Shown here: positions 4,238-6,286 of the stretch, in pieces | Layout of the letters: each line of letters starts with the position of its first letter | Position numbering within the stretch: the stretch's first letter is position 1 | From: a plasmid | Strand: one strand, 5' to 3' | Length of the DNA: 13,570 nucleotides | Sequence record: NZ_CP073849.1 | Notes under the pieces: model-generated | What the model was told of the DNA's origin: nothing | What the model saw: the letters and a program-made list of their open reading frames with translations, nothing else | Databases searched by the model: none | Program-made: the position numbers and the translations under genes

Positions 4238-4936
4238 TTATATTGCCTTTTTTCTGAATATTAAAAGACTTATACCTAATATTAGTAGTCCAGAAGCGCC
4301 AATTATTGACAATATATCACTTTGGTTGCTTTCTCCTGTTTCTGGTAATACTTGAGAGTTTGAATCTTGATTTTTCATTCCTTCAGAACTCTTGTTTTTA
4401 TTTTCAGTTACAGGTGTCAACACACCTTGAGGTGTATTAATAGTTTTATTTTCTTCATTAGCTATCTTTTGACTTTCATTTTTTACAATTTGATTATATT
4501 TTTCTGTGGATACACTATTAGGGTTAGGAACATGACTTTCTAATTCTTGGTATTCTTCTTGAGTCATACAATTAGGTATCACCCCTCCGAAAGGTCTTTT
4601 ACCTTGTTGAGTTCTCTCATTATTTTGTATATCAGTACTTTGTGATTGATATTCATTAAATACACTTGAAACTTTCTCATTATACTCGATTTGAGTTAAT
4701 TCCCCTGAATCTTTCTGTTTAGAAAGTTCACTTATTTGATTTTGTGCAGATTGTGGGAGGGATGAAGTATTGAAGTCTACATTAGCCCAACCATCTCCAT
4801 TTGTATCTGCGCTATTTGGTAAGTTCTCTCCGTATACGGTTTTGGCACCATCCTCAGCATTGGCTGTCGCTGAAAAACCTGTGAATGTTAATGAGCTAGC
4901 CAATAATAAAGTTGGAAGTAATGATCGTTTTTTCAT
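4238..4936 (-). CDS. LPXTG cell-wall-anchored surface protein (232 aa); true start MKKRSLLPTLLLASSLTFTGFSATANA, sorting signal LPETG + hydrophobic stretch + RKK
   Basis: The ORF track gives 4238..4987. The in-frame ATG at 4934-4936 has RBS AAGGAG 9 nt upstream, and the 17 extra N-terminal codons lack an RBS. Sec signal peptide, LPETG motif, C-terminal membrane span and positive tail. Confidence 0.85.
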   Translation of the reverse strand: MKKRSLLPTLLLASSLTFTGFSATANAEDGAKTVYGENLPNSADTNGDGWANVDFNTSSLPQSAQNQISELSKQKDSGELTQIEYNEKVSSVFNEYQSQSTDIQNNERTQQGKRPFGGVIPNCMTQEEYQELESHVPNPNSVSTEKYNQIVKNESQKIANEENKTINTPQGVLTPVTENKNKSSEGMKNQDSNSQVLPETGESNQSDILSIIGASGLLILGISLLIFRKKAI

Positions 4937-5036
4937 AAAATTATCTCCTTTAATAGAATTTGTATTTTCATTATCACATAGATACATTAAACATAAAATG
5001 ACTTATCGGAAGTGCATATGCTTAACAATTCACAAA

Positions 5037-5045
5037 TGATATAAT
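5037..5045 (+). promoter_or_regulatory. Extended -10 TGaTATAAT promoter for the toxin mRNA (TSS ~5052)
   Basis: TGATATAAT read directly. Weak -35. Divergent from the LPXTG gene promoter. Confidence 0.5.
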
Positions 5046-5099
5046 ATAAAAGTCGTCGTTCTACTTCTGTGCTGGTTTAGCATGGAAGGAGGTGACACC

Positions 5100-5198
5100 A
5101 TGTTCAGCATCATATTTGTATCTATAGTAGCTCCTATTATAGTAGGGGTTATAATCACGTTGTTTTCACATTGGTTGAATAATCGTGATAAACAATAA
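5100..5198 (+). CDS. Fst/par-family type I toxin, 32 aa (MFSIIFVSIVAPIIVGVIITLFSHWLNNRDKQ)
   Basis: Perfect SD GGAAGGAGGTGA 5-6 nt before the ATG. Single TM helix with the conserved Fst-family APIxVG....LF.HWL core and charged C-terminal tail (compare pAD1 Fst and S. aureus PepA1/SprA1). Too short for the ORF track. Confidence 0.8.
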   Translation: MFSIIFVSIVAPIIVGVIITLFSHWLNNRDKQ

Positions 5199-5212
5199 AG
5201 CGACGACACAGT

Positions 5213-5290
5213 AATAACACCAAAAAGAGCCCGATAACTACTGGAATAGTTATCGGGCTCGGTGTTTACCATGTTCAACACATATTTGTT
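5213..5290 (-). ncRNA. Candidate antitoxin antisense RNA (RNA II-like, ~75 nt), convergent to the toxin
   Basis: Minus-strand promoter TTGCAT (plus 5321-5326) - 18 nt - TGtTATAAT (plus 5297-5305). The transcript would contain UGUUGAACAUGGUAAACACC, complementary to the toxin SD/start region, and end at the shared terminator. Confidence 0.6.
5221..5267. terminator. Bidirectional terminator shared by toxin mRNA and convergent antitoxin RNA (14-bp perfect stem GAGCCCGATAACTA/TAGTTATCGGGCTC, loop ctggaa)
   Basis: A5 tract upstream (5222-5226) and GGTGTTT downstream. This is the architecture of par RNA I/RNA II. Confidence 0.75.
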
Positions 5291-5374
5291 ATCTAAATTA
5301 TAACATCATAGTGTGGAGGAATGCAAAATTGAATAATTAGTATGTTAAGTCTATACTATACTGATTAGTAAGTA

Positions 5375-6286
5375 CTAATTATCATCTTTGTTATTGTTAC
5401 CCCTTTCATTGGCTTTTGAATCTAATTCTTTTTGAAATTTTTTGTGTGATTTTGAAGAAGTGTTTAAAAAGAAATAGGTCATATTATCCATACGATGTCC
5501 TTTTATAAATTCATTGATAAATTGTTTTTTTGTCATTTTTTTGGTTGTATTACGTTGTTTTTGCAATCTAATGATTTCTTCTTCAATGTATACTCTTATC
5601 ATCAAATCTAAACTAGATGTCTGATTATAAGTAGTGAATAATTTTGGAACTAATAAAGTTTTATTACCATCAAAAAGAAATGGAGTGAAATCATAAGTTT
5701 CCCATATACCGTTAGTAGAGAAATAATAATATGTCACAGTTTCTTTAGAAAGAAACGATTTCATTTCTGGAAATGACTGAATCATGGATTTATTAAAATC
5801 AATTATAACATTCATGATTATATTACTTGTTAAATCTGATAATTTATCATCACCAAAATTTCTGATTAATGGTGCTTTTTGAGGTATTGTTAATCCGTCA
5901 TCATTTAAGATAATGGAAAGAATATCTTCATTCATAAATAGATTAATCAATTCAGATGCTGTAGTACCTTTTCCTGTATTACCTTTCTGAGAAAAACCTA
6001 AGCGTAAATGGTGTGGTTCTGAAAAATGAGAGAATAATTTTCTAAATTCATTACGCTTTTGGGTATCAGAAAAATCACTAAGATGTATATCGATAATTTT
6101 TTCAAAAAAAACATCAATTTGCTCTTGTGCTCTTTGAGCCAAAGTCGCAACTTTTCCAACTTCTCTATTAGATATTACTTTAATAAGGTTTGGGTCTATA
6201 TATTGAAGAGTGTCTTCTTCAATAGAAATATTTAAATAATCAGTTGATTTAGCATCATGATTGAATTTGGTACATACTAGTGTCAC
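5375..6286 (-). CDS. Uncharacterised 303-aa protein (GTG start); no confident family assignment
   Basis: RBS AAGGATGA 9 nt upstream of the GTG at 6284-6286. Long clean ORF with typical codon usage. Contains the Gly-rich segment GFSQKGNTGKGTTASELINLFMNEDI and a Lys-rich C-terminal tail. Confidence 0.75.
   Translation of the reverse strand: MTLVCTKFNHDAKSTDYLNISIEEDTLQYIDPNLIKVISNREVGKVATLAQRAQEQIDVFFEKIIDIHLSDFSDTQKRNEFRKLFSHFSEPHHLRLGFSQKGNTGKGTTASELINLFMNEDILSIILNDDGLTIPQKAPLIRNFGDDKLSDLTSNIIMNVIIDFNKSMIQSFPEMKSFLSKETVTYYYFSTNGIWETYDFTPFLFDGNKTLLVPKLFTTYNQTSSLDLMIRVYIEEEIIRLQKQRNTTKKMTKKQFINEFIKGHRMDNMTYFFLNTSSKSHKKFQKELDSKANERGNNNKDDN

Follow-up and report, generated by a model that had tools for sequence, protein, structure and literature searches.

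A probable par/Fst-type toxin-antitoxin cassette on a small staphylococcal antiseptic-resistance plasmid

Does the short interval between positions 5000 and 5328 of plasmid record NZ_CP073849.1 encode a functional toxin-antitoxin pair, and how would the two partners act on each other? Positions given here are those of the whole 13,570-nucleotide (nt) stretch of this record, numbered along one strand, which we call the window. An earlier note on this DNA had proposed an Fst/par-type type I locus consisting of a 32-amino-acid (aa) toxin and a convergent antisense RNA, and every element that it listed is present, with small corrections. From the features described below we consider it very likely that 5000-5328 constitutes a self-contained par/Fst-type type I toxin-antitoxin cassette, in which an antisense RNA (RNA II) would block translation of the toxin messenger (RNA I). 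At the level of sequence, the strongest evidence of function is the co-variation of two repeat copies through which the RNAs are predicted to pair. Comparisons refer to 18 aligned loci, namely the window and 17 loci (designated by L numbers) taken from the 333 plasmid records in which the module was found.

The toxin gene and its messenger

The plus strand carries a gene for a 32-aa Fst-family toxin (5100-5198; ATG at 5100, stop codon at 5196-5198), the product of which is MFSIIFVSIVAPIIVGVIITLFSHWLNNRDKQ. It is preceded by the Shine-Dalgarno (SD) region GGAAGGAGGTGA (5084-5095, plus strand), whose core GGAGG (5088-5092) lies 7 nt ahead of the ATG. The sequence GGAAGGA and the start of the next GGTG are invariant in the alignment of the 18 loci. 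The earlier note had described both this SD and a peptide with the Fst core, and had named the Pfam family as a check on the latter. The peptide scored 41.2 bits against Pfam Fst_toxin (PF13955; curated cut-off 36) and 62.6 bits against NCBIfam type_I_tox_Fst (NF033608; curated cut-off 26). Members of the family are recognized by a hydrophobic helix that contains a PxxxG motif and is followed by a conserved Trp, and by a tail of charged residues at the C terminus (Weaver 2020, PMC7472228; Fozo 2010). The window toxin displays all of these, with APIIVG at residues 11-16 providing PxxxG within the hydrophobic helix, followed by W25 and the charged tail NNRDKQ.

The nearest solved structure was that of Staphylococcus aureus PepA1 (4b19; E = 8.6e-6, residues 4-30). 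Weaker matches were obtained to LdrD (5lbj; E = 0.023) and to pAD1 Fst (2kv5; E = 0.29), and the score against Pfam Ldr_toxin was 18.4 bits, under the cut-off. The ratio of non-synonymous to synonymous change (pN/pS) of the toxin against its relatives was between 0.2 and 0.56, which indicates purifying selection on the peptide. The window toxin comprises 32 aa as compared with 31 aa in nearly all relatives: the usual stop codon TAA is CAA in the window and the next TAA is used (5190-5198), resulting in an extra C-terminal Gln. The earlier note had called the locus unannotated. This was true of the list of open reading frames (ORFs) available to its reader, but RefSeq already lists the toxin, on identical plasmids, as WP_000491388.1, "type I toxin-antitoxin system Fst family toxin".

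Transcription of the toxin gene would be driven by an extended -10 element, TGATATAAT (5037-5045, plus strand), which lacks a good -35. The sequence TGnTATAAT is found at this place in 15 of the 18 loci, and two more have a TGATAGAAT-like element. Judging from the spacing to the -10, RNA I probably starts near G5052, and the predicted toxin mRNA of ~217 nt would cover 5052-5268 on the plus strand. This RNA folds with a minimum free energy of -81.7 kcal/mol (z = -8.6 relative to 200 shuffles). In the predicted structure the extreme 5' arm GUCGUCGUU (5052-5060) forms a long-range 5'-3' helix of 9 bp with AGCGACGAC (5199-5207), which sits just past the stop codon, and the 5' end of the mRNA is sequestered. 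Compensatory changes in this helix are found in L015 and L016 (GGUCAUCUAG/CUAGAUGACU) and in L017 (GUCGCC/GGCGAC).

A 5' stem-loop is predicted at 5064-5088 (plus strand), in which CUUCUGUGCUG pairs with UAGCAUGGAAG. Here CUUCU would pair with GGAAG and sequester the 5' part of the SD. RNAalifold applied to the 18-sequence alignment missed this SD hairpin, as MAFFT shifts three divergent sequences by one column, and for this reason each homologue was folded on its own. In these separate folds GGAAG was paired with an upstream CUUCY in 17 of 17 distinct homologues (partially in L010), and the inner stem of the stem-loop was altered yet paired in L014, L017 and L018. The three-part architecture of RNA I, comprising the 5'-3' helix, the SD hairpin and a terminator hairpin, was likewise recovered in all 17. 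A review of the family describes structures that sequester the 5' end as well as the SD as being conserved (Weaver 2020, PMC7472228).

The putative antisense RNA and its predicted contacts with the messenger

On the minus strand we found the promoter that the earlier note had read there, with TTGCAT as the -35 (5326->5321) and, after a spacer of 18 nt, TGTTATAAT as the extended -10 (5305->5297). It forms the right edge of the conserved cassette. A generic promoter scan missed it, TTGCAT agreeing with TTGACA at three of six positions. A TGnTATAAT-like -10 and TTGCAT separated by 17-18 nt are present in 15 of the 18 loci; L015 and L016 have TTGGAT instead, and the promoter of L018 is degenerate. 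The putative product is RNA II, an antisense antitoxin RNA of ~70 nt (5220-5290, minus strand), with its 5' end placed from the position of the -10 and its 3' end from the U-tract. Folding of both transcripts had been suggested as a check, and RNA II gave -30.6 kcal/mol (z = -6.4). The 3' two-thirds of RNA II overlap with RNA I, to which their complementarity is perfect.

The overlap includes an inverted repeat at 5227-5260 that would serve both strands as a terminator hairpin. Its arms (5227-5240 and 5247-5260) are 100% complementary over 14 nt, giving a perfect 14-bp stem closed on the plus strand by the loop CUGGAA. Five pairs of the stem show compensatory changes on both sides, each in five sequences of the alignment. 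On the minus strand U5 comes after the hairpin, but on the plus strand only GGUGUUUA, a weak U-tract, and a terminator scan accepted it on the minus strand only. The hairpin itself is therefore as the earlier note had it, whereas the proposed bidirectional termination is only partly shown, because the plus-strand U-tract is weak and efficient termination on this side is not evident.

The loop of the hairpin varies in orientation. The window loop CUGGAA contains CUGG; a YUNR U-turn motif in the terminator loop of RNA I is not universal in the family (Weaver 2020, PMC7472228). At the centre of the hairpin (5236-5252) the window has AACTACTGGAATAGTTA and both L002 and L003 have its exact reverse complement, AACTATTCCAGTAGTTA, an inversion that puts the motif in RNA II. 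The same flip separates L007 and L010-L012 (CTATTCGCAGTAG) from L008 (CTACTGCGAATAG), and in both cases the loci are otherwise near-identical. Recurrent loop inversion thus shifts the YUNR-like CUGG from the loop of RNA I to that of RNA II.

A direct repeat would provide the second contact between the two RNAs. Copy 1 (5091-5124, plus strand) takes in the tail of the SD, the start codon and codons 1-8 and would be the target site in RNA I; copy 2 (5261-5295, plus strand) has as its complement the 5' domain of RNA II. GGTG at 5091-5094 recurs at 5261-5264, and 5097-5124 and 5268-5295 agree in 26 of 29 columns, with two gaps of 1 nt each. An ungapped repeat search missed the repeat, the copies differing by indels, and gapped local alignment with shuffling was used instead. 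The local score of 39 compares with 11.8 ± 2.3 (maximum 24) for 2000 shuffles, and the second copy is the best match to the initiation region window-wide. The repeat on which the earlier note had relied is real, but it is longer than was stated there and contains two 1-nt indels.

Through this repeat the 5' 30 nt of RNA II are predicted to pair with positions 5091-5119 of RNA I, where the tail of the SD, the AUG and codons 1-7 lie. The duplex comprises 26 bp and has an energy of -34.6 kcal/mol, as compared with -9.8 ± 2.8 kcal/mol for shuffled RNA II, the best of 1000 shuffles reaching -20.5 kcal/mol. The antisense complementarity to the toxin SD and start codon that had been proposed is thereby borne out. 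Co-folding of RNA I with RNA II shows the 3' overlap only. The 5' contact was scored by duplexfold because both contacts together make a pseudoknot-like topology that co-folding cannot represent.

The two copies of the repeat co-vary across the 18 loci, with changes such as ACC to ATC before the ATG and AGCATCA to AGTACAC. Cognate duplexes have energies of -32 to -37.5 kcal/mol, except for L013 (-24.0 kcal/mol), and the cognate duplex ranks first or tied first in 18 of 18 loci. Non-cognate duplexes formed from divergent loci reach -7 to -22 kcal/mol.

The same calculations sort the loci into pairing groups. For window-type RNA II, toxin mRNAs of the L004-L013 types are still fairly good partners (-22 to -32 kcal/mol). 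It is essentially orthogonal to types L014, L017 and L018 (-7 to -20 kcal/mol).

Extent, distribution and known relatives

A sensitive DNA search turned up 333 plasmid records that carry the ~300-bp module, with identities of 66-100%, 328 of them from Staphylococcus and five from Mammaliicoccus, and in nearly all rows listed the match coincides with an annotated Fst family toxin. The homologous stretch runs from about 5000 up to exactly the minus-strand promoter's -35 (TGCAAA, 5322-5327). Outside these limits the genes vary between loci and include IS257, arsR/cadX, an ABC transporter, a reverse transcriptase and lepB. Because the homology is bounded in this way and the flanks differ, the cassette is autonomous. 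The earlier note had suggested that the locus forms a stability module together with the resolvase and an adjoining 303-aa gene. This link did not hold up, since flanking genes differ in nearly every locus; adjacency to these two genes is common only to the closest relative examined (L002).

On the left, the conserved cassette is bounded by the upstream motif GACTTATCGGAAGT (5000-5013, plus strand). In 15 of the 18 loci and in the fst1 locus of pN315 it is kept with no more than a few substitutions, even where the sequence up to the -10, including the -35 region, differs. In the longer form (ACATAA..)GACTTATCGGAAGT (4990-5013) it lies ~27 nt upstream of the extended -10 of the toxin gene and occurs only once in the window. 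The motif may serve as a binding site for a protein or as an UP-like element. A pairing of GACTTATCGG with the terminator arm (TTATCGG), which the motif resembles, was considered and rejected: the motif stays constant where the terminator stem has changed, and the two do not co-vary.

Expression data are available for homologous loci on pN315, which has two Fst toxin genes (5641-5733, plus strand; 23071-23166, minus strand) in cassettes that are 67% identical to each other. RNA sequencing (RNA-seq) of N315 (Beaume 2010, PMC2873960, Table S1) detected Teg8pl (5831->5768, 63 nt), which is convergent on the first toxin gene. For the second locus the same data contain the toxin mRNA, Teg5pl (23202->23049), and Teg9pl (22973->23027, 54 nt), which is convergent on the toxin gene. 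When the window cassette is aligned to pN315 fst1 (61% identity), Teg8pl begins immediately downstream of the counterpart of TGTTATAAT and runs as far as the terminator. A small convergent RNA has therefore been detected, in the pN315 homologue, at the position predicted for RNA II.

Fst-like toxin-antitoxin loci are known on VRSAp, the pSK1 family and many other plasmids (PMC4885055, PMC6496109; citing Weaver 2009, Kwong 2010, Jensen 2010). They have been listed for pMW2, pN315 and pLAC-p03 (PMC8545097), and a survey found them in a third of the plasmids of methicillin-resistant S. aureus (PMC10135026). The window locus shares with these staphylococcal plasmid loci the same ~300-bp cassette, the same RefSeq toxin name and an element-by-element alignment with pN315 fst1. 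It differs from them in its 32-aa toxin with the extra C-terminal Gln, and from the pN315 loci in that its pairing region falls into another specificity group. In contrast to the staphylococcal Fst members reviewed previously (Weaver 2020, PMC7472228), the clade of the window toxin (APIIVGV) does not possess a Cys after PxxxG.

Most of the sequence-testable features that define pAD1 par of Enterococcus faecalis, the system to which the earlier note had likened the locus, are also present. The two share convergent promoters, a terminator hairpin common to both transcripts, and repeats that make RNA II complementary to the initiation region. In both, a 5' stem-loop masks the SD and a helix masks the 5' end, and the toxin is small and hydrophobic, with PxxxG and a charged tail. 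In contrast to pAD1, the window toxin starts with ATG rather than GUG, the plus-strand U-tract is weak, and Trp25 replaces the Val of pAD1 Fst, to which direct similarity is weak, as the match to 2kv5 indicates.

The toxin of SprA1/SprA1AS, PepA1, is the closest one of solved structure, and this system also employs a cis antitoxin that overlaps its target at the 3' end and represses via a non-overlapping 5' domain acting on the initiation region. However, SprA1/SprA1AS and SprA2/SprA2AS of S. aureus are located on the chromosome or a pathogenicity island rather than on plasmids, PepA1 carries after PxxxG the Cys that is missing from the window toxin, and the SprA1 and SprA2 loci have no detectable whole-cassette DNA homology to the window. 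Ldr/Rdl of enterobacteria is similar at the level of the toxin superfamily, as seen in the Ldr_toxin and LdrD matches, but is regulated differently, the gene for its antisense RNA facing the 5' end of the toxin gene.

Mechanism, alternatives and meaning

These features suggest the following mechanism. Transcription of the plus strand would yield the ~217-nt RNA I, encoding a 32-aa single-helix membrane toxin. Its 5'-3' helix would hide the 5' end and its 5' hairpin the ribosome-binding site, so that translation of the toxin would be intrinsically slow. The minus strand would give rise to the ~70-nt RNA II from the convergent promoter. The two RNAs would be fully complementary at their 3' ends because both include the same terminator hairpin, and the 5' domain of RNA II would also match, as a complement, the tail of the SD, the start codon and the first seven codons because of the ~30-nt direct repeat in the DNA. 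Binding of RNA II at the initiation region would then block toxin translation. In par and SprA1/SprA1AS, pairing of the antitoxin over the initiation region blocks translation (for par: Weaver 2020, PMC7472228), and the intramolecular structures of par delay translation and stabilise RNA I (Weaver 2020, PMC7472228). By analogy with pAD1 par, the shorter-lived RNA II would disappear first upon loss of the plasmid, and the stable RNA I would then be translated, resulting in post-segregational killing. For NZ_CP073849.1 itself we infer the toxicity, the plasmid stabilisation, the relative stability of the RNAs and the transcript ends.

Several observations weigh against this account. The 3' end of RNA I is uncertain, because the plus-strand side of the terminator is without a good U-tract. 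The window has one long interrupted repeat as compared with the separate DRa and DRb of pAD1 par. The RNA-seq support is limited by the DNA identity between the window cassette and the pN315 loci, which is only 55-61%. Finally, Rfam at gathering thresholds gave no match in the whole window. In a permissive scan the fstAT model (RF01797; gathering threshold 72 bits) reached 38.7 bits (E = 1.3e-5), and it aligned at 5245->5145 on the minus strand, with the 3' half of the terminator and the antisense of the C-terminal toxin codons rather than with the predicted RNA II.

The stretch aligned by fstAT lies downstream of the putative RNA II terminator. The model seems to cover a stretch other than par-type RNA II and would not annotate such antitoxins. 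The last 53 nt of another Rfam model, RsaJ (RF01822), resemble the body and terminator of RNA II (5227-5278, minus strand) at a sub-threshold 30.7 bits (E = 1.5e-5).

The alternative that fares best keeps the Fst/RNA II pair intact but assigns it a main role other than stabilisation, such as stress response or persistence, exclusion of competing plasmids, or abortive phage infection. Many Fst homologues are of obscure role (Weaver 2020, PMC7472228). Two copies are present in 50 of 62 staphylococcal plasmids (PMC10135026), as they are in pN315, a redundancy not obviously needed for killing after plasmid loss, and the pairing regions divide into specificity groups that are partly orthogonal. However, the module is overwhelmingly plasmid-borne and lies beside unrelated cargo, which fits a selfish stability cassette, and reviews hold that plasmid versions of the family act by post-segregational killing (PMC7472228). 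We therefore regard a different main role as unlikely.

It is less probable still that RNA II acts solely through the 3' overlap, by duplex cleavage and mRNA decay, with the repeat at the start codon being incidental. The 51-nt overlap is by far the most stable contact in co-folding (a free-energy change, ddG, of -39.4 kcal/mol). If the repeat were incidental, its copies would not be expected to change together in every lineage so that the cognate duplex is preserved while non-cognate combinations lose it. In addition, par and SprA1/SprA1AS block translation via a region outside the overlap.

We also hold it very improbable that the locus is a decaying, non-functional remnant. The mutation of the stop codon from TAA to CAA, by which the toxin is one residue longer than in relatives, and the weak plus-strand U-tract could be taken as signs of decay. 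In contrast, the reading frame, the SD, the two promoters, every helix and the pairing between the RNAs have stayed intact, and pN/pS is below 1. The interval 4990-5375 is moreover 100% identical in two plasmids from different species, Staphylococcus epidermidis DAR1907 plasmid unnamed3 (NZ_CP016971.1, 13,552 bp) and S. aureus plasmid NZ_CP026959.1.

The 83-aa ORF on the minus strand (5030-5281) is the longest in the interval, but it can be dismissed as the real gene and is spurious, as the earlier note had held, because a Pfam search gave no match and it is split into pieces of 35-74 aa in 15 of 17 relatives (whole only in L002); it also runs antisense through the terminator hairpin and the conserved toxin gene.

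The par/Fst-type cassette is located on a small staphylococcal RepA_N/qacA antiseptic-resistance plasmid, as is apparent from its gene content: a MobA/MobL relaxase gene (415-2337), an LPXTG surface protein gene (4238-4987, minus strand), a serine resolvase gene (6705-7349, minus strand), qacR and qacA (7516-9805) and a RepA_N initiator gene (11980-13026). The 249-aa ORF at 4238-4987, which ends just upstream of the cassette, contains an LPETG cell-wall anchor and a weak match to the DMAP1-binding domain (28.4 versus 27 bits); its sequence marks it as a plasmid-borne sortase-anchored surface protein. On the other side a 303-aa ORF (5375-6286, minus strand) directly adjoins the cassette. Searches of Pfam, NCBIfam and PADLOC returned no match for it and gave no functional tie to the cassette. 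Among the loci examined it is found beside the cassette elsewhere only in L002, a Staphylococcus capitis locus that is 98% identical. The window contains an intact 514-aa ORF of the major facilitator superfamily (qacA type; 8261-9805, plus strand). In the near-identical NZ_CP016971.1 (L001, 11985-13531) qacA/qacB is represented by five fragments only, and that record is 18 bp shorter overall; the fragmentation is likely due to indel errors of that assembly.

The finding is correct but already known, in that publications cover the family, how it is built and how prevalent it is on staphylococcal plasmids, and the toxin is in RefSeq. For this plasmid, the cassette explains the only apparently non-coding gap in its part of the molecule and flags a gene that is overlooked by ORF-length filters. 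It also exposes a practical gap, the antitoxin RNA being invisible to Rfam-based annotation. The cassette provides a probable maintenance function for a qacA antiseptic-resistance plasmid that is common to S. epidermidis and S. aureus.

A more tentative idea, which we consider possible but would not favour, is that the co-varying repeat defines orthogonal Fst/RNA II specificity groups and loop inversion changes which RNA bears the U-turn, the diversification being due to competition between plasmids rather than to drift. If this is true, cassettes on co-resident or competing staphylococcal plasmids would not neutralise each other, and the U-turn motif that starts the kissing contact might switch from one RNA to the other through recurrent loop inversion.

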